DNA of 64,000 nucleotides from Dehalococcoidia bacterium (GCA_965248865.1 CBDFKP010000002.1:376610-440609); one strand, 5' to 3'. Positions 6,253 to 27,248 are shown, counted from the first letter of the stretch. The notes: generated from the letters alone by a model not told the origin. Translations and numbers: made by a program.

Positions 6253-7011
6253 TTGAGCATACCGAAGATGAAGGATATGGTGGCCATCGTCAATGGAGCC
6301 AGCCGTGGCATCGGCGCTGGAATAGCCAGGGGATACGGCATAGAGGGTGCCAAGGTGGTGGTGGCGGCCCGAACGGAGGAGCCGCATCCCAGGCTGCCCG
6401 GCACCATCCACTCCGTTGTGGCGGAGATCAACGAGGCAGGCGGTGAGGCCACCGCCATCAGATGCGACATCTCTCAAGAGGAGGATGTTCAGAATCTAGT
6501 CGATCAGACCCTGGAGAAGTACGGCAAGATAGACGTGGTGGTGAACAATGCCGCCGTGATGATCACCGGCAACCCCGTGGTGGATACCCAGGCCCGCCAC
6601 TACCTGTTGGGTCTCAGGGTGAACCTGCTGGGGCCGTTCCTGCTGTGCAAGTATGCCCTTCCCTCCATGATGGAGCGGCGGTCCGGGAGCATCATCAACA
6701 TCGGCTCCGGTGCGGCGGAGAGCAGGAACCCTGGCGGAACAAACTATGCCACCACAAAGGCCGGCCTGGAGCGGTTCACCATAGTGCTGGCTGAGGAGGC
6801 ACGGGAGTACAACATCGCCGTGAACTGCCTTGATCCGGGGCCTATCAAGTCTGAGGCGGCGGAGATGCTTCAGCCGGCGGACCACAACTGGGCCTCCTAC
6901 GCACCGCCGAAGGCCGTGGCCCCCTCGGCGATATTCCTTGCGGTGCAGGACGCCAAGAGTTTCACCGGCCGGATAGTCCACCGCACCGAGTTTCGCCGCA
7001 CCTGGCCGTAG
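6253..7011 (+). CDS. SDR family oxidoreductase
   Basis: NGASRGIGAGIA cofactor motif and YATTK (YxxxK) catalytic motif. AGGAGG lies 5 nt upstream of TTG 6253. Confidence 0.85.
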   Translation: MSIPKMKDMVAIVNGASRGIGAGIARGYGIEGAKVVVAARTEEPHPRLPGTIHSVVAEINEAGGEATAIRCDISQEEDVQNLVDQTLEKYGKIDVVVNNAAVMITGNPVVDTQARHYLLGLRVNLLGPFLLCKYALPSMMERRSGSIINIGSGAAESRNPGGTNYATTKAGLERFTIVLAEEAREYNIAVNCLDPGPIKSEAAEMLQPADHNWASYAPPKAVAPSAIFLAVQDAKSFTGRIVHRTEFRRTWP

Positions 7012-7178
7012 ACCGGCCGGGGAGCAGCCTCTGCTCGATATGGGCGTACCCGCCGGGTACGCCCAACGTTTGTCCCAGCCCCTCCGCAAGTCACTGCCAG
7101 TTGGCGAGCCCCTCCTTTGCAGAGACAAAACTTCCCTATGCTATAATTCCTTTGGAGAGCGCCCTCAGCGAGGTACCG

Positions 7179-8000
7179 ATGCCCGACTACGAAGCCATCA
7201 TCCTGGACAAGGACGCCCAGGAGCATATCGCCAGAATTACGTTGAACCGCCCCGACCGGTTGAACGCCATCAGTGATCAGATGGGACGGGAGCTCGTTGA
7301 GGCAATTGAGGACGTGGCCGCGGATGATGAGGTGCGTGTGCTGGTGCTCACCGGCGCCGGCCGCGGCTTCTGCTCTGGGGCCGATACCGCTGGTATGGCC
7401 GGGGGGCAGTCCCAGGGTGGGCACTCTGGCGAGCGGGGAGCAGAGGAGATACGCCGGGGCTTCGGCACCGCGCAGCGGATGATCCTCGGGCTGCATCGCA
7501 TGGAGAAGCCGACGATAGCTATGGTCAACGGTGCCGCCGTGGGGGCCGGGCTGGACCTAGCGTGCGCCTGCGATATACGCATCGGCTCCTCCAACGCCCG
7601 GTTCATGGTGGCCTATATACGCATCGGGCTGTTCCCGGGCTATGGCGGTGCCTGGCTGTATCCCCGAGTGCTGGGGAGCGTGGCCAAGGCGGCGGAGCTG
7701 CTCTTCACCGGCGACTTCATGGAGGCAGCAGAGGCCTTGCAGCACGGGCTGCTGAACCGCCTGGCGACCCCCGAGGAGTTGGAGAGCACCACCATGGAGA
7801 TGGCGCGGAAGATAGCCCAGGGTCCGCCCATAGCCATGCGCCTTTCCAAGCTTATGCTCTACAAGGGATTGGAGTTTGACCTGGAGACGGCCATGCAGAT
7901 GGCGGCGGCGGCGGAGACCATTACACTCACCTCCCGCGACCATCAGGAGGGGCTTGCCGCCTTCCGAGAGAAGCGCGTGCCCCGCTTTACCGGCGAGTAG
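7179..8000 (+). CDS. enoyl-CoA hydratase/isomerase (crotonase) family protein
   Basis: VLTGAGRGFCSGAD oxyanion-hole motif. ATG 7179 gives the typical N-terminus; the track ORF starts at 7101. Confidence 0.85.
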   Translation: MPDYEAIILDKDAQEHIARITLNRPDRLNAISDQMGRELVEAIEDVAADDEVRVLVLTGAGRGFCSGADTAGMAGGQSQGGHSGERGAEEIRRGFGTAQRMILGLHRMEKPTIAMVNGAAVGAGLDLACACDIRIGSSNARFMVAYIRIGLFPGYGGAWLYPRVLGSVAKAAELLFTGDFMEAAEALQHGLLNRLATPEELESTTMEMARKIAQGPPIAMRLSKLMLYKGLEFDLETAMQMAAAAETITLTSRDHQEGLAAFREKRVPRFTGE

Positions 8001-8056
8001 GTGTACCGTAGGCTGTTCCAGCTTGTAGATATCGATGTAGCCAAGAAAGGGGTCCA

Positions 8057-9000
<944 letters not shown>

Positions 9001-9004
<4 letters not shown>

Positions 9005-9279
9005 AGGACGGTGATGGTATGGCGGAGAGAGCGACAAAGACCTATGCGATGCCGGTCCAGATCAGCAAGATTGAGGGCGTAGGCTACCGTGCTGAGTGCA
9101 CGATCCTCCAGGGATGCTTTGTGGATGGCGGCACCATGGAGGAGGTGCTGTCGGACATCCAAGAGGCGATTGCGCTTTACATTGAGGCCTCCCGTGAGCG
9201 AAATCTGCCGCTGCCGGAGATCGTGGAAGCGCCAGGTTCGGCGGTGCTGACCATTATCCCTGTGGCTGTGCATGCATGA
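9001..9279 (+). CDS. hicB: HicB-family antitoxin (UPF0150-like)
   Basis: HicB N-domain pattern: YAMPVQISKIEGVGYRAECTILQGCFVDGGTMEEVLSDIQEAIALYIEA...LPLPE. Alternative ATG at 9019. Stop overlaps the next gene's ATG (ATGA). Confidence 0.75.
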
Positions 9280-9469
9280 GGTATGGTGAACTGATTCGGC
9301 TTCTCAGTGATCATGGAGCAGAGATCTATGGCAGGGCCGCAGACATGAAATCTGGGGTGTTCCAGGGACACCGCTTCGGACGCTGGTGCCGAGACATCGG
9401 GGAGAAATAGCCGCCGGCACAGCACAGAGGATCTTGAAAGAGCTAGGAATACAGATGCCACGAGGTTGA
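9276..9469 (+). pseudogene. hicA: HicA-family toxin, apparently frameshifted
   Basis: ATG 9276 gives MRYGELIRLLSDHG and then runs to TAG 9408-9410. The HicA-like remainder (WSRDLWQGRRHEIWGVPGTPLRTLVPRHRGEIAAGTAQRILKELGI, stop 9467-9469) is in another frame. The frames switch near 9312-9325. Confidence 0.65.
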
Positions 9470-9488
9470 ACGCAGCTGTCCAGCCGGA

Positions 9489-9504
9489 GCAATGTTTGAA
9501 TGAA
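9489..9504 (+). repeat. 16-bp direct repeat copy 2, overlapping secA start
   Basis: Identical to 8990-9005. Confidence 0.9.
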
Positions 9505-12175
9505 TACAGGCTACAACATGCTCAAATCCCCCTTGCGGTTCATTACAGACTCAAGCGGGCGGGCCATCAAGAAGTTCCGCCCCATTGTTGAGCGTATCAA
9601 TGCCCTTGAGCCTTCCCTGGAGCGCCTCTCCGACGACGAGCTCAAGGCGAACACCGCGGAGTTCCGGGCCCGTCTTGAGCGGGACGCCGAGCTGGACGAC
9701 CTGCTGGTGGAGGCCTTCGCCCACGTCCGTGAGGCGGCCAAGCGCACCATCGGCCAGCGCCACTACGATGTCCAGCTCATAGGAGGCACCGCGCTTCACC
9801 AGGGGAAGATCGCCGAGATGCAGACGGGAGAGGGAAAGACCCTGGTGGCCACCCTTCCTCTCTACCTGAACGCGCTGGAGGGCAAGGGTGCCCACCTGAT
9901 CACGGTCAACGACTACCTGGCCAAGCGGGACACCCAGTGGATGGGCCCCATTTTTCACCTTCTGGGACTGAGCGTCGGCTGCCTCCAGCATGAGTCGTCG
10001 TATATCTACGATCCGGACACCGAAAACGACAGTCCGAACCTGGTCAACCTGCGACCGGCGACCCGCAGGGAGGCGTACCAGGCGGACGTTACCTATGGGA
10101 CCAACAACGAGTTCGGGTTCGATTACCTGCGGGACAACATGATCGCCGACCCCTCCCAGGTGGCGCAGCAGGAGCTCCACTACGCCATTGTGGATGAGGT
10201 GGACAACATCCTCATCGACGAGGCACGCACCCCGCTGATCATCAGCGGCCCGGCCCAGGAGCCCGCCAAGCTCTACCCCGCCACGGCCCGACTGGCGGCA
10301 CGGCTGGTGGCGGAGGTGGACTACACCGTCGATGAGAAGCTACGCTCCGTCACCCTCACGGAAGAGGGCATCTCCAAGGTAGAGCGGGGGCTCAACCTCG
10401 ATAACCTCTACGCACCGGAGAACGTGGCACTGACCCACTACGTGGACAATGGACTCAAGGCCTCGGTCATCTTCCAGCGGGATAGGGACTACGTGGTCCA
10501 GGACGGTGAGGTGATCATAGTAGACGAGTTCACCGGGCGTCTCATGCCCGGGCGGCGCTACTCTGAGGGGTTGCACCAGGCCATAGAGGCCAAGGAGGGG
10601 CTCCAGGTCCGTCGGGAGAGCATCACCTACGCCACCATTACCTTGCAGAACTACTTCCGCCTCTACCGGAAGCTCTCGGGCATGACCGGCACGGCCGCCA
10701 CCGAGTCAGACGAGTTTTTCAAGATATACAGGTTGGAGGTCGTCGTCATTCCCACCAACAAATCGATGATCCGGGTGAACACCCCTGACCTGGTGTATAA
10801 GAATGAGAGGGCCAAGTACAACGCGGCTGCGCAGGAGATAGCCGAGCTCCATAAGGAGGGTCGCCCCGTGCTGGTGGGCACCACCTCCATCGAGAAGTCC
10901 CAGGAGCTCAGCGACCTCCTCAAACGGCGTGGCATTCCCTGCCAGGTGCTGAACGCAAAGTTTCATGAGAAGGAGGCGTCCGTGGTGGCCCAAGCCGGAC
11001 GTCTGGGTGCGGTGACCGTGGCCACCAGTATGGCCGGTCGTGGTACCGATATCGTCCTGGGAGGGAACCCGGAGAGCCGTGCCCCGGAGGAGTGGCAGGA
11101 GGAGCACGACAAGGTGGTGGCGCTGGGGGGGCTCCACATCCTCGGCACGGAGCGCCACGACGCCCGGCGCATCGATAACCAGCTCCGCGGCAGGGCGGCG
11201 CGCCAGGGCGACCCCGGGAGCGCTCAGTTCTACGTCTCCCTGGAGGACGACCTGATGCGTCGCTTCGGCGGCGATAGGATCAAGAAGATTATGGGCTGGG
11301 CCGGACTGGAGGAGGAGGTTCCCATTCAATCGCGCCTGGTTACCAAGGCCATCGGAAGCTCTCAAGTGAAGGTGGAGGCGGCCAACTTCGACATCCGCAA
11401 GCACCTGGTGGACTACGACGACGTTATCAACGTCCACAGGGACCTGATCTACAGCGAGCGTCGTAAGATCGTGTCCGGAGCCGATCTGAGGTCGAACATT
11501 CAGGAGATGGTCCACCGGGAGATCGATGACCTGGTGGCCGCCCACACCTCCGACCGGGACCGGGACGAGTGGACCCTGGACAGCCTTGTAGCGGAGCTTC
11601 AGTCCATCATGCCCCTGCCCTCGGACCTGGCCGTGGACCGCCTCTACGACCTCACTCCGGAGGAGATGGGTGATGCCATCATCGCCCACGCCGACGCCGT
11701 GTACGAGGAGCGTGAAGGGCTGCTGGGGGCCGAGCAGATGCGGGCGATGGAGCGCGTGGTGATGCTCCGGGTCATGGACTCCCATTGGGTGGAGCACCTG
11801 ACGGCGATGCAGAACCTTCGGGAGGGCATAGGGCTACAGGCCTACGGCCAGCGGGACCCCCTTGTCATGTACCGAAAAGAGGCGCATGAGATGTTCGAGG
11901 AGCTTCTCAGAAGCGTCCAGCATGACATCGTTCACACCCTGTTCCATGTGGTGCCCGCGCCTGGCGGAGCGGCCTCAGCCGCGCCGGCCTCATCAAGTGG
12001 TGCATTGCAGACTGGAAGAGGCGCGGTGGTGGCGGCATCCCGGCCCAGCGTCATGGCGAATGCCGTTGGCAATCGTGGTGCGGCAACGCCTGGCGGTGCC
12101 AAGGTGGGCCGCAACGACCCGTGTCCCTGCGGCAGCGGCAAGAAGTACAAACGGTGCCACGGCGCCGCTGCATAG
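9500..12175 (+). CDS. secA: preprotein translocase ATPase SecA
   Basis: [13 protein letters not shown] and [19 protein letters not shown] motor motifs. C-terminal Zn finger [14 protein letters not shown]. The start could instead be Met7 (9518). Confidence 0.95.
12107..12170 (+). repeat. 64-bp direct repeat copy 1 (secA Zn-finger tail)
   Basis: Repeated at 12670-12733 with one substitution (TGC/TGT Cys codon). Confidence 0.92.
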
Positions 12176-12188
12176 GAGGTTTGTTGTA

Positions 12189-12422
12189 ATGCGATTGTTT
12201 CACCTAATACAGAAGGGCATTCTCCTGGAGTTTCAGGAGGAATCTGAGGGCGGTTACACGGTTACAGTACCATCACTGCCGGGATGCGTGTCGTATGGCG
12301 AAAGCTTCGAACAAGCGATTGAGATGATCAAGGATGCTATGGAAGGATGGCTTGCCGTGGCCGGCGAGGAGGGGGTAGCCATTCCGGAGCCCTTCCGGTC
12401 GGTCAAGATCGCCAGTTTGTGA
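12189..12422 (+). CDS. hicB: HicB-family antitoxin (UPF0150-like)
   Basis: MRLFHLIQKGILLEFQEESEGGYTVTVPSLPGCVSYGESFEQAIEMIKDAMEGWL is typical of the HicB N-domain. Stop overlaps GTG of the next gene. Confidence 0.75.
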   Translation: MRLFHLIQKGILLEFQEESEGGYTVTVPSLPGCVSYGESFEQAIEMIKDAMEGWLAVAGEEGVAIPEPFRSVKIASL

Positions 12423-12662
12423 GAGTTGCTGTGCGCGGCGATCTTCCGACTCTCAGGCCGCAAGCGGTTGCACGTGTTTTGGAACGAGCTGGCTTTACTA
12501 GTGAAGCGGCAAACAGGGGCACACCTTATTCTATTTAAAGAAGGATTGCGAAGGCCGGTTACCGTACCGTTGCATCGGGGAGACCTGCCAAGGGGAACTT
12601 TGAGAGCTATCATTCGGGAAGCTGGTTTAACTGTGGGGGAGTTTCTTGCCTTACTCACATAA
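12419..12662 (+). pseudogene. hicA: HicA-family toxin, apparently frameshifted
   Basis: From GTG 12419 the N-terminus reads VRGDLPTLRPQAVARVLERAGFT and then stops (12536-12538). The rest ([54 protein letters not shown]) is in the adjacent frame. A 1-nt indel near 12497-12501 would restore a canonical HicA. Confidence 0.7.
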
Positions 12663-12669
12663 TGGCCAT

Positions 12670-12733
12670 GGCCGCAACGACCCGTGTCCCTGTGGCAGCG
12701 GCAAGAAGTACAAACGGTGCCACGGCGCCGCTG
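12670..12733 (+). repeat. 64-bp direct repeat copy 2 (orphan secA tail relic)
   Basis: Reads [22 protein letters not shown] and then TGA (12736-12738), with no gene body upstream. Confidence 0.92.
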
Positions 12734-12794
12734 GGTGATGGCTCATGTATCTGACCCAGGGTGAGAACAGCTCTCCAGATGGTGCTCCAGTCGC

Positions 12795-14549
12795 ATGAAC
12801 AACCTCCAGATAGCGGACGTGTTTACCAAGATCGCCGCTCTCACGGACCTGAAGGGCGAGGGCGTCTTCGTTGTGCGCGCCTACCAGCGGGCGGCCCACA
12901 CCATCGAGCGGCTTCCCGTGGAGCTGGAGCAGTACGTGGCCGAGGGGAACAACCTCCGAGAGATCTCCGGCATAGGCGAGGCCATCTCCAAGAAGATTCG
13001 GGAGCTCCTGGAGACCGGGCGGTTGGAGTTCTACGAGAAGCTAAAGGCAGAGTTTCCGGAGGGGCTGCTCCAGCTTTTGGATGTCCCGGGTATAGGGCCC
13101 AAGACCGCCATGCTGGTCTGTACGGAGCTGGGCGTCTCCACCGTGGAGGAGCTTGAGGCCGCCATTGAGGACGGCCGGGTGGCGGCGCTGCCTCGCCTTG
13201 GGGAGAAGGCGGCGGAGAACATCCTGCGCCACATCCGTTCCCCCCGGACCAAGGAGCAGCGCACACCCCTGGGGCGGGCCCTGCCCGTGGCCGAGGCGGT
13301 GATAGAGCATCTGCGCCAGCGAGGTCCGGGGATCAGGCGACTGGAGCCCGCCGGGAGCCTGCGCCGCTACGAGGAGACCGTGGGGGACATCGACCTGGTC
13401 TGTACCGCCGACGACCCCAAGGGGGTCATAGATGCCTTCGTGGCCTTGCCGGAGGTGGCGGATGTCCTGGGCCACGGCTCCACCAAGGGCAGCGTGGTCA
13501 CCAAGGTGGGGCTCCAGGTAGACCTCCGCGTGGTGACGGACGAGGAGTACGGCTCCCTGCTCCAATACTTCACCGGCAGCAAGCAGCACAACGTCATCCT
13601 CAGGGAGTATGCCAATCGCATGGGCCTCTCCCTCAACGAGTACGGTATTACCGATACAAAGACGGGCGAGGTTCAGAAGTACACCGATGAGGAGCCCTTC
13701 TACGCCCGGCTTGGCCTTCCCTACTTCCCGCCGGAGCTGCGCCAGGGCACCACGGAGCTGGATGTGGCCCGCCGCGGCGCTCTCCCTAACCTGGTAGAGA
13801 TGAGCCACATCAACGGCGACCTCCACGTCCACACGGACTGGAGCGACGGTCGTGACGCCATGGAGGCCATGCTGGCCGCCGCCGCGGAGCGGGGCTACCA
13901 GTACCTCGCCATCACGGACCACTCCTCCGGCCGCGGCATCGCCAACGGACTGACCAGGGAGCGGTTGCTCCGCCAGATCGAGCTCGTCCGCTCCCTGGAT
14001 GGGCGGTTCGGCACCATGAAGCTCCTCACCGGCTCGGAGGTGGACATCCGGGCGGACGGCTCCCTGGACTATGCGGAAGAGTTGCTAAGGGAGCTGGATG
14101 TGGTGGTGGCCTCCGTCCACTCCGCCATGGGTCAGGATAGAGAGACAATGACGGAGCGTATCATAAGGGCTATGAGGAACCCCTATGTCACCGTCATCGG
14201 CCACCCCACCACTCGGCTGGTGGGCCAGCGCCCGCCCATTGAGGTGGATATGGAGGCGCTGTTCCAGGCTGCGGCGGAGACCGGCACGGCCATGGAGATC
14301 AACGCCTCACCGGACCGCATGGACCTGCGGGACGTCCACGTGCTGCGGGCCAAGGAGGTGGGCGTTCCCCTGATGATCAACACAGATGCCCACTGGACGG
14401 AGCATTTTGCTAATATGCGCTTCGGTGTGGCGGTGGCCCGCCGGGGCTGGTGTGAGGCCATTCACATTGTCAACACCCGTCCCCTGGACGAGTTTCTCGC
14501 CTTCATACGCCGCAAACGTACTCAACCGAAGGCCACGGTGGTACACTAG
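12795..14549 (+). CDS. polX: DNA polymerase X family protein with C-terminal PHP domain
   Basis: Pol-beta-like HhH N-terminus, nucleotidyltransferase motif GSLRRYEETVGDIDLV and PHP motif GDLHVHTDWSDG. 584 aa. Confidence 0.9.
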   Translation: MNNLQIADVFTKIAALTDLKGEGVFVVRAYQRAAHTIERLPVELEQYVAEGNNLREISGIGEAISKKIRELLETGRLEFYEKLKAEFPEGLLQLLDVPGIGPKTAMLVCTELGVSTVEELEAAIEDGRVAALPRLGEKAAENILRHIRSPRTKEQRTPLGRALPVAEAVIEHLRQRGPGIRRLEPAGSLRRYEETVGDIDLVCTADDPKGVIDAFVALPEVADVLGHGSTKGSVVTKVGLQVDLRVVTDEEYGSLLQYFTGSKQHNVILREYANRMGLSLNEYGITDTKTGEVQKYTDEEPFYARLGLPYFPPELRQGTTELDVARRGALPNLVEMSHINGDLHVHTDWSDGRDAMEAMLAAAAERGYQYLAITDHSSGRGIANGLTRERLLRQIELVRSLDGRFGTMKLLTGSEVDIRADGSLDYAEELLRELDVVVASVHSAMGQDRETMTERIIRAMRNPYVTVIGHPTTRLVGQRPPIEVDMEALFQAAAETGTAMEINASPDRMDLRDVHVLRAKEVGVPLMINTDAHWTEHFANMRFGVAVARRGWCEAIHIVNTRPLDEFLAFIRRKRTQPKATVVH

Positions 14550-27136: not shown

Positions 27137-27248
27137 CCTTTGGCTATCCCTGGGTTTGGAGGTCCCGTTCGCTAAGATTGAAGGGCCCGTTCGTGGTGAG
27201 CTCCGATTGCATCGAGAGTCTCGACAGAGTCGGACTTGCCGAACTATC
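27137..27248 (+). repeat. intergenic repeat element, copy 1
   Basis: Shares CCTTTGGCTAT.CCTGGGTT.GGA.GTCCC ... GGCCCGTTCGTGGTGAGC ... CTTGCCGAACT.TC with 27849-27941. Internal palindrome CGAGAGTCTCG. Confidence 0.75.

Follow-up and report, generated by a model that had tools for sequence, protein, structure and literature searches.

How does a toxin-antitoxin (TA) module come to lie between two housekeeping genes when no mobility gene accompanies it? In E. coli, TA pairs occupy such intercistronic positions at relA-mazEF-mazG, dinB-yafNO-yafP and folA-ccdO157-apaH (Fraikin et al., 2020, PMC7167474; Mine et al., 2009), and the mechanism by which TA systems integrate is stated as not elucidated (PMC7167474). 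We investigated this question at the prs-hicB-hicA-secA locus of a Dehalococcoidia bacterium, a marine Chloroflexota with a 3.1-Mb genome, in a stretch of 64,000 nt (GCA_965248865.1, CBDFKP010000002.1:376610-440609) referred to here as the window. The original prediction held that a hicBA cassette of roughly 0.5 kb had been inserted between the prs stop and the secA start, where it would be bracketed by a 16-bp direct repeat left by duplication of the end of the target gene.

The target gene is prs (8057-9004, + strand), which encodes ribose-phosphate pyrophosphokinase (Pfam Pribosyltran_N, 1.2e-49; Pribosyl_synth, 4e-25) with 64-84% identity to Prs of relatives. The predicted repeat is exact: the 16-mer GCAATGTTTGAATGAA has + strand copies at 8990-9005 and 9489-9504, no third copy turns up anywhere in the four contigs of the 3.1-Mb assembly even at one mismatch, and 100 shuffles of the sequence yielded no match (0.00 expected). 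As anticipated, the left copy covers the last four codons of prs and its TGA stop (9002-9004), plus one base. The loose similarity proposed upstream of both copies stands for 20 nt at 95% identity, with one mismatch (8986-9005 and 9485-9504, repeat finder); an extension by eye to about 28-29 nt, with three mismatches and one indel (8978-9005 and 9476-9504), is not statistically secure. We annotated the gene-proximal copy, DR-L, at 8978-9005 (+ strand; exact core 8990-9005, 20 nt at 95% from 8986, a possible degenerate part from 8978) and the orphan distal copy, DR-R, at 9476-9504 (+ strand; exact core 9489-9504, degenerate part from 9476). Another 16-nt repeat pair in the window, at 27186 and 27898, has no TA genes in its interior and was treated as unrelated.

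The copies were also thought to overlap the start codons of hicB and secA, at 9001 and 9500, and this part of the prediction does not hold. Relatives' SecA aligns from residue 1 with the product read from ATG 9518 (MLKSPL..), which is the likely start of secA (9518-12175, + strand), the downstream partner in the ancestral prs-secA pair. Likewise, all 20 HicB homologues are about 86 aa long with the N-terminus MAE..TKTY, and AAGGA lies 10 nt upstream of ATG 9019, the likely start of hicB. With the starts at 9019 and 9518, the repeat overlaps neither start codon. Instead, DR-R is followed by a native 13-nt secA leader, TACAGGCTACAAC, and then by ATG 9518. The insert between the 16-mers measures 483 bp and contains only hicB and a frameshifted hicA, both read in the same direction as prs and secA. 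ORF and Pfam scans turned up neither a transposase nor an integrase at the cassette, and the repeat finder no terminal inverted repeat, in agreement with the prediction that no integrase, IS end or inverted repeat would be associated with it. Neither a sigma-70-like promoter nor a + strand terminator was predicted in 7900-9700, and the cassette is probably co-transcribed with prs and secA.

We then characterized the cargo. The antitoxin gene hicB (9019-9279, + strand) is intact and encodes 86 aa. Its match to HicB_lk_antitox (PF15919) scores 24 bits, under the 27-bit cut-off (E 4.6e-5); its 20 homologues (62-98% identical), which stem from metagenomes or from MAGs of Chloroflexota, all carry precomputed PF15919 annotation. 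The hicB TGA and the hicA ATG overlap as ATGA at 9276-9279, joining two small co-oriented genes. The toxin gene hicA (9276-9469, + strand) is a pseudogene, so the predicted hicBA cassette is not intact. Frame 1 (9276-9410) encodes 44 aa and then stops, and the remainder of HicA (QGRRHEIW..VPRHRGEIAAGTAQRILKELGIQMPRG, then a stop) continues in the -1 frame at 9332-9469. No ORF of this cassette holds an intact HicA domain; the HicA_toxin match (PF07927, 2.1e-6, 28.2 bits with a cut-off of 27, on 9314-9469) is confined to the -1 frame. The lesion is one base absent at 9329/9330 (TAT-GG-CAG GGC, vs TAC CGC CAG GGC in the intact gene of lineage L032). L030 and L031, independent metagenome assemblies of very close relatives with 98% HicB identity, share exactly this frameshift, which is therefore not an assembly error. 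In its genes the module resembles canonical HicAB type II TA systems, with a predicted HicA RNase toxin fold (PF07927), a putative HicB of family PF15919 and overlapping reading frames. It differs in its short single-domain HicB, in which no DNA-binding domain was detected, in its hicA pseudogene and in the lack of a detected promoter of its own. The cargo is an ordinary, decaying HicAB module.

The insertion reading presupposes that prs and secA are neighbors in relatives, and they are. When 40 relatives were searched at the DNA level, 30 genomes gave matches to the 3' end of prs and the 5' end of secA, and none matched the cassette interior. Of 21 loci retrieved from genomes of this order, 20 have prs and secA together, at rough distances of 8-561 nt (below 320 nt except in G002), and the adjacency is ancestral in the order. 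Sister genomes have clean empty sites, consisting of the prs stop, 8-66 nt and the secA start. In G001, the only genome of the same family, the junction reads ..GGCGCTATGTTTGAATAG-GAAGAGCAGTCGTC-ATG(secA), with 14 nt from the prs stop to the secA ATG, and the junctions of G029 and G039 are empty and similar. Removing one repeat copy and the interior from the window gives ..GGCGCAATGTTTGAATGAATACAGGCTACAACATGCTC.., in agreement with the G001 empty site ..GGCGCTATGTTTGAATAGGAAGAGCAGTCGTCATGTTC... The compact junction that the prediction expected from such a deletion is therefore the natural layout of G001. Because relatives carry clean empty sites (G001, G029, G039 and others in the alignment of orthologous loci), the cassette is an insertion, and the proposal of a TA module of about 0.5 kb placed between the prs stop and the secA start is upheld.

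It is not an event private to the window's genome. When the same hicBA pair was sought in other flanks, all 11 contexts retrieved for the HicB family turned out to lie between prs and secA. They come from L023, L025, L026, L027/28/29, L030/31, L032, L033, L034/35, G073 and G086, the last two from a search of 401 genomes of the order, and they place the family at this junction in at least 10 lineages besides the window. For a tree of Prs and SecA we took the five cassette-bearing lineages with enough sequence; they fall within one 11-member clade (93/93), interleaved with six empty genomes. The window pairs with the empty G001 and L023 with the empty G039, both at 100/99, and at least four gains or losses of the cassette are needed on this tree. 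A single genus holds both G086, with the cassette, and G039, without it. HicB identity roughly tracks Prs/SecA identity, L026 being the most distant for both, and dS between cassette lineages is about 1-2. Altogether, the cassette is neither private to the window genome nor recent.

Across these lineages the two genes have fared differently. Intact hicA orthologues are found in L026 and L032. In L027-29, hicA carries a 1-nt deletion different from that of the window, in L023 it has several lesions, in L025 it is deleted, in G073 it is replaced by a small palindromic element, and in L037 it is likewise deleted or replaced. In L033 it is interrupted by a gene of 251 aa and a PIN-domain gene (L033:925-2164), and in L034 a gene of 164 aa and an NYN-domain gene occupy its place (L034:2855-3804). 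We considered programmed frameshifting and rejected it: the 1-nt deletions found in two lineages differ from each other, further lineages carry several lesions or have lost sequence, and hicA is in frame in L026 and L032. The toxin gene has decayed independently in several lineages. Conversely, hicB shows a dN/dS of 0.07-0.18 between lineages and is kept under purifying selection. The locus documents the usual fate of such modules, in which the toxin is lost first and the antitoxin kept. Between L027 and L037, hicB is more diverged than prs (dS 1.1 vs 0.29), with the excess mainly in its 3' half, beside the deleted hicA; we do not claim horizontal replacement of the cassette there, as relaxed constraint explains the excess equally well.

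The prs-secA junction is a hot spot for toxin-type cargo, as the PIN and NYN modules of L033 and L034 show, and the varied decay and replacement of hicA make it resemble the plastic TA insertion loci of E. coli (PMC7167474). As in those islets, a TA pair sits between two cistrons of a housekeeping operon that are contiguous in strains without it, its location is conserved, and its toxin decays progressively. Both kinds of junction also gather small elements, REP in E. coli (PMC7167474) and MITE-like palindromes and PIN/NYN modules here. What sets the prs-secA cassette apart from the E. coli loci (PMC7167474) is the clear duplicated target end that brackets it, together with the seeming absence of a promoter of its own.

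The palindromes are REP/MITE-like, G-rich elements in the prs-hicB or hicB-secA spacers (L023:2686-2990, L025:2646-2820, L034:2346-2495, L037:1724-1880) and share motifs such as GGGGGTTTGGGGGTGTCCC; in the window's genome (G000), weak similarity to them was found in one place (C3:555827-555892).

We further investigated how the repeat itself behaves across lineages. In L026 it reaches 41 nt (40/41) and derives from that lineage's own prs end (GGGGCCATGTTCGAGTAG plus AGGAGATG), and in L025 about 33 nt at 82%. The distal copy has decayed in L023/G086, with about 10/15 bases left, and is mostly deleted in L027/L033/G073. Lack of the repeat in cassette-bearing relatives had been named beforehand as evidence against the insertion, and some cassette lineages do have no recognizable repeat, others a longer one (41 nt in L026). 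Where the orphan copy survives, it resembles the prs end of its own genome best: the window copy matches its own prs end at 18/19 positions and those of other lineages at 16/19 at most, the L025 copy at 16/19 (14 at most elsewhere), and the L026 copy at 19/19, or 40/41 over 41 nt (15 at most elsewhere). These own-genome matches extend to synonymous, third-codon sites and to which stop codon is used. Since dS between lineages exceeds 1, this excludes that the repeat is a neutral relic of one ancient duplication, and the co-variation of the orphan copy with its own prs end indicates that the repeat is renewed by recombination or re-insertion. The copies thus appear either to exchange sequence, by gene conversion or unequal crossing-over, or to belong to a cassette re-installed in each lineage from the local target. 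Such renewal is not universal, since the orphan copy has decayed or been deleted in two groups of lineages, B (L027/L033/L037) and C (L023/L038/L034). The predicted duplication of the target's end therefore stands in that a duplicated prs end brackets the insert, but it may not be a simple duplication made at the time of insertion, because it co-varies with prs.

With 13 nt between the orphan copy and the downstream secA start, some constraint is conceivable, and one could suppose that the repeat is a passive ancient scar kept prs-like by selection on the secA leader, if not chance similarity or an assembly artifact. However, selection on a leader cannot track the synonymous and stop-codon changes of prs in three lineages, zero shuffle matches are expected, the structure is identical in two independent short-read assemblies, and, as described below, the same build recurs at a dozen loci. 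We regard this explanation as very improbable and close to refuted.

A genome-wide survey, in which a scan for local direct repeats was followed by Pfam checks, revealed that the cassette build recurs at at least 12 other loci of the window's genome. Six of its 13 hicA loci are bracketed by significant direct repeats (null 95th percentile score 12.5): besides prs, these are the secA tail (64 nt), a tRNA-Gln (63 nt), a tRNA-Met (95 nt), a comM-like gene (79 nt) and a gene of 706 aa (110 nt). Other cassettes, bracketed by 29-124-nt repeats of the 3' end of a neighboring gene or tRNA, carry a DUF433/DUF5615 pair (42 nt), a ParE pair (34 nt), a GNAT gene (95 nt), an RRM and zinc-ribbon pair (104 nt) or, in three cases, a DUF2283-type pair (42, 60 and 124 nt). 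Nine small cassettes, at C4:652926-653708, C4:1458137-1458729, C2:279328-280090, C3:535953-536588, C4:307413-308062, C1:29442-30169, C1:167851-169292, C4:12359-13140 and C4:773978-774667 of G000, lie between 34-124-nt duplications of the neighboring gene's 3' end; their cargo comprises DUF433/DUF5615, DUF2283-type pairs, ParE, a GNAT acetyltransferase, an RRM protein with a zinc-ribbon protein, hicAB, and a hicBA behind the comM-like gene. At most loci with an assignable target, the duplicated sequence comes from the 3' end of a long housekeeping ORF or of a tRNA. The gene-proximal copy contains the stop codon or ends just before it, and cassette and target usually share their orientation. At the comM-like locus, a 10-nt deletion in the gene-proximal copy alters the protein tail.

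The nearest of these cassettes lies directly behind secA (12107-12733, + strand; repeat finder and Pfam), with the secA tail copy at 12107-12170, hicB at 12189-12422, hicA at 12426-12662 and the orphan copy at 12670-12733, all on the + strand. Here both hicB and hicA are intact. The repeat is 64 nt of the SecA zinc-finger tail, 63/64 identical, and its sole mismatch is synonymous (TGC/TGT). The gene-proximal copy ends in ..GAAA and a stop, its last codon and stop coming from the insert, and the orphan copy in ..GAAG and a stop.

Two further hicBA cassettes lie behind tRNA genes. The first follows tRNA-Gln(CTG) at C3:571119-571726 of G000 (L057) and is itself followed by a perfect 63-nt orphan tRNA fragment. 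Its HicA homologues at 78-82% identity are found 3' of tRNA-Gln in three other, differently flanked metagenome contexts (L052-L055), with a 59-nt orphan piece of tRNA-Gln(TTG) in L052/53; more distant HicA homologues (53-62%) include none adjoining tRNA-Gln. Orphan and live tRNA-Gln share their anticodon in each genome, CTG in the window's and TTG in L052/53, and the repeat unit measures 534 nt in the former vs 533 nt in the latter. This is a second site-bound cassette lineage. The other cassette lies behind tRNA-Met (G000 C2:27972-28777), within a 95-nt repeat that runs from tRNA position 19 to the end of the tRNA and on through a 38-nt terminator hairpin. Its copies differ at 0/57 positions in the tRNA part vs 5/38 beyond it (p about 0.02), which hints, no more than suggestively, that they diverged while both were functional.

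Direct repeats at rebuilt gene ends call to mind integrase-borne islands and cis-mobilizable elements (CIMEs), which occupy gene or tRNA 3' ends, as ICESt1/3 does in fda of Streptococcus thermophilus. The cassettes share with CIMEs the direct repeats taken from the target's 3' end, the reconstituted target and the lack of a recombinase of their own. The prs-secA cassette could accordingly be a minimal integrative element of CIME type, its repeats being attL and attR and a tyrosine or serine recombinase acting in trans. Integration into a 3' end that is rebuilt in the process is the classic integrase signature and is seen in the prs, secA, tRNA-Gln and tRNA-Met cassettes alike; such a recombinase would account for binding to one site and for precise excision, and the genome encodes six tyrosine recombinases. 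However, all six genes are far from the cassettes, none lies in 7000-14500 of the window, and no recombinase gene is found within about 50 kb of the cassettes with listed positions, so that, unlike for CIMEs, neither a helper element nor a recombinase is nearby. The dozen or more targets in this one genome would demand many specificities, and the repeats range from 16 to 124 nt. The cassettes, only 0.5 kb long, consist of ORFs and a ribosome-binding site, and a shared motif or inverted repeat was not seen at their inner ends. We consider this explanation quite improbable, and weaker than that of independent insertions discussed below. Other mobile elements fit no better: transposons and IS elements differ from the prs-secA cassette in having a transposase ORF and inverted-repeat arms, and integron cassettes in their attC-type inverted repeat, absent from 9410-9504, and in forming an array beside intI; the cassettes here are dispersed singly behind different genes.

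The reading that we favor, with slightly better than even confidence, is that the locus is an old, site-bound, promoterless type II TA islet whose repeat copies are an active substrate of recombination. A hicB-hicA cassette entered the junction of the prs-secA operon directly after the prs stop, leaving two copies of the last 16-40 nt or so of prs, one as the live end and one as an orphan before the untouched secA leader. The toxin gene later died by a 1-nt deletion, with the antitoxin gene retained by purifying selection. We infer that the copies, rather than forming a passive scar, would recombine with each other. Gene conversion or unequal crossing-over would keep them alike, and recombination across them would delete the cassette precisely, which would explain the clean empty sites scattered among cassette-bearing relatives. 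DNA from a relative could then restore the cassette at the same gene end, either by Campbell-type integration of a circle with one repeat copy or by recombination of a fragment that bears this target sequence on both arms. A repeat that serves as the substrate of recombination would also hold each cassette lineage to one target, and a cassette that carries its own homology to that target would need no transposase or integrase.

Efficient RecA pairing usually needs roughly 25-30 nt, and the 16-20 exact bases of the window fall short of this, which makes ongoing conversion at this copy of the locus doubtful. Exact patterns of all four junctions (left, right, empty, and circle or tandem) had 0 matches among JGI metagenome contigs, a collection from which the lineage seems to be absent, and no excision product was seen. 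The renewal model does not account for the first insertion. We also counted synonymous and non-synonymous differences between the repeat copies of seven loci (16 vs 18) as a test for a foreign copy and dropped it, as the ratio is compatible both with a foreign copy and with duplication in place under constraint on one of the copies.

The main rival to this recombining, site-bound islet is that related hicBA cassettes were inserted independently in each lineage, without homology, by a process that duplicates a long and variable stretch of target and prefers gene ends, such as a staggered break with fill-in or a replication template switch. The repeat would then be no more than a scar, recent in the window, L025 and L026 and older in the lineages in which it has decayed. 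Such a process readily accounts for the likeness of the two copies within a genome and for repeat lengths that vary from 16 to 124 nt between loci and, at this junction, between lineages (about 20-29, 33 and 41 nt). Related hicA genes of this genome are also found at different targets, for instance tRNA-Met and the secA tail, and at each the repeat is a different one. In L026, moreover, the right boundary of the repeat differs, lying 8 nt beyond the stop with the hicB ATG included, and the 5' end of hicB is shorter; this boundary appears to fit independent insertion as well as renewal. Yet the same family would have had to strike the same few bases at least three to five times and nowhere else in 11 contexts, with HicB divergence following host divergence. 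The prs position at which the orphan copy begins is about the same in all three of the window, L025 and L026, and the tRNA-Gln family keeps a unit of 533/534 nt in two lineages, neither of which independent insertion leads one to expect. It explains the variable lengths and the L026 boundary and does not explain strict binding to one site; we judge it unlikely overall, if a serious contender.

Independent insertion has a documented model in restriction-modification genes, whose repeats reach across the start or stop of a neighboring gene and which are accompanied by no mobility genes (PMC2853133). Restriction-modification complexes are described as inserting with long, variable target duplications by a mechanism given as unknown (Nobusato et al., 2000, Gene 259:99; Furuta, Abe and Kobayashi, 2010, PMC2853133). 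Several features recur here: a small addiction-type unit with neither transposase nor integrase, direct repeats that align once with the empty site of a related genome, and repeats that occur nowhere else in the genome and in many cases include the start or stop of an adjoining gene (PMC2853133). The criteria of Furuta et al. are an insert below 20 kb with no mobility gene and a unique repeat, an empty site aligning to both repeats, and a duplication of more than 30 bp. The 483-bp prs-secA insert has the first set of features, and G001, G029, G039 and others provide the empty site. The duplication is shorter than 30 bp in the window (16 nt exact, 20 at 95%, about 29 degenerate) and longer in L026 at the same site (41 nt), at the secA tail (64 nt) and at other loci (34-124 nt). 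Two points nevertheless separate our locus from the restriction-modification complexes, as far as the passages of PMC2853133 on their target duplications describe them. The cassette is bound to one site across deep divergence, and its repeat co-varies with the host gene. Furthermore, the cargo here is a TA pair, and since its HicA toxin is an RNase, the cargo cannot be held responsible for breaking the DNA itself.

The footprint of the locus belongs to the long-target-duplication pattern, below its 30-bp threshold in the window, and to the intercistronic chromosomal TA islets. For TA modules we have not found a description of this combination: a duplicated target end, a repeat that co-varies with the host gene, attachment to one site over deep divergence, and a dozen parallel cases in one genome. 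This locus and the dozen like it supply a structural footprint, a duplicated upstream-gene end with no mobility gene, that is a testable clue to how TA modules enter genomes without a transposase, and they widen the long-target-duplication pattern from restriction-modification genes to another class of addiction modules. The evidence that cassette lineages stay on one target, at prs/secA and at tRNA-Gln, with copies kept alike, narrows the possible mechanisms. More tentatively, and with real doubt, the cassettes as a group may be recombinase-free, homology-armed mobile elements, in which the copy of the target's end would allow precise looping out, homogenization and, in related cells, re-installation behind the same gene, with only the host's homologous recombination at work. 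In that case, TA modules and some other small genes would survive over deep time as parasites tied to particular sites at essential genes and tRNAs, and the question of how chromosomal TA systems integrate would have an answer, at least in this lineage.

Long direct repeats in this genome also flank other kinds of sequence. Two transposase genes, which we named IS110-like (G000 C4:1517727-1519205) and IS1595-like (C3:96418-97968) by eye from their N-terminal sequences, are bordered by direct repeats of 90 nt at 91% and 173 nt at 92.5%, respectively, which far exceed normal target-site duplications. Behind tRNA-Thr(CGT), at C4:769985-772529, a 2.3-kb island of small ORFs, none recognized as a recombinase, is bracketed by a 122-nt repeat (98%) made up of part of the tRNA and its downstream flank.
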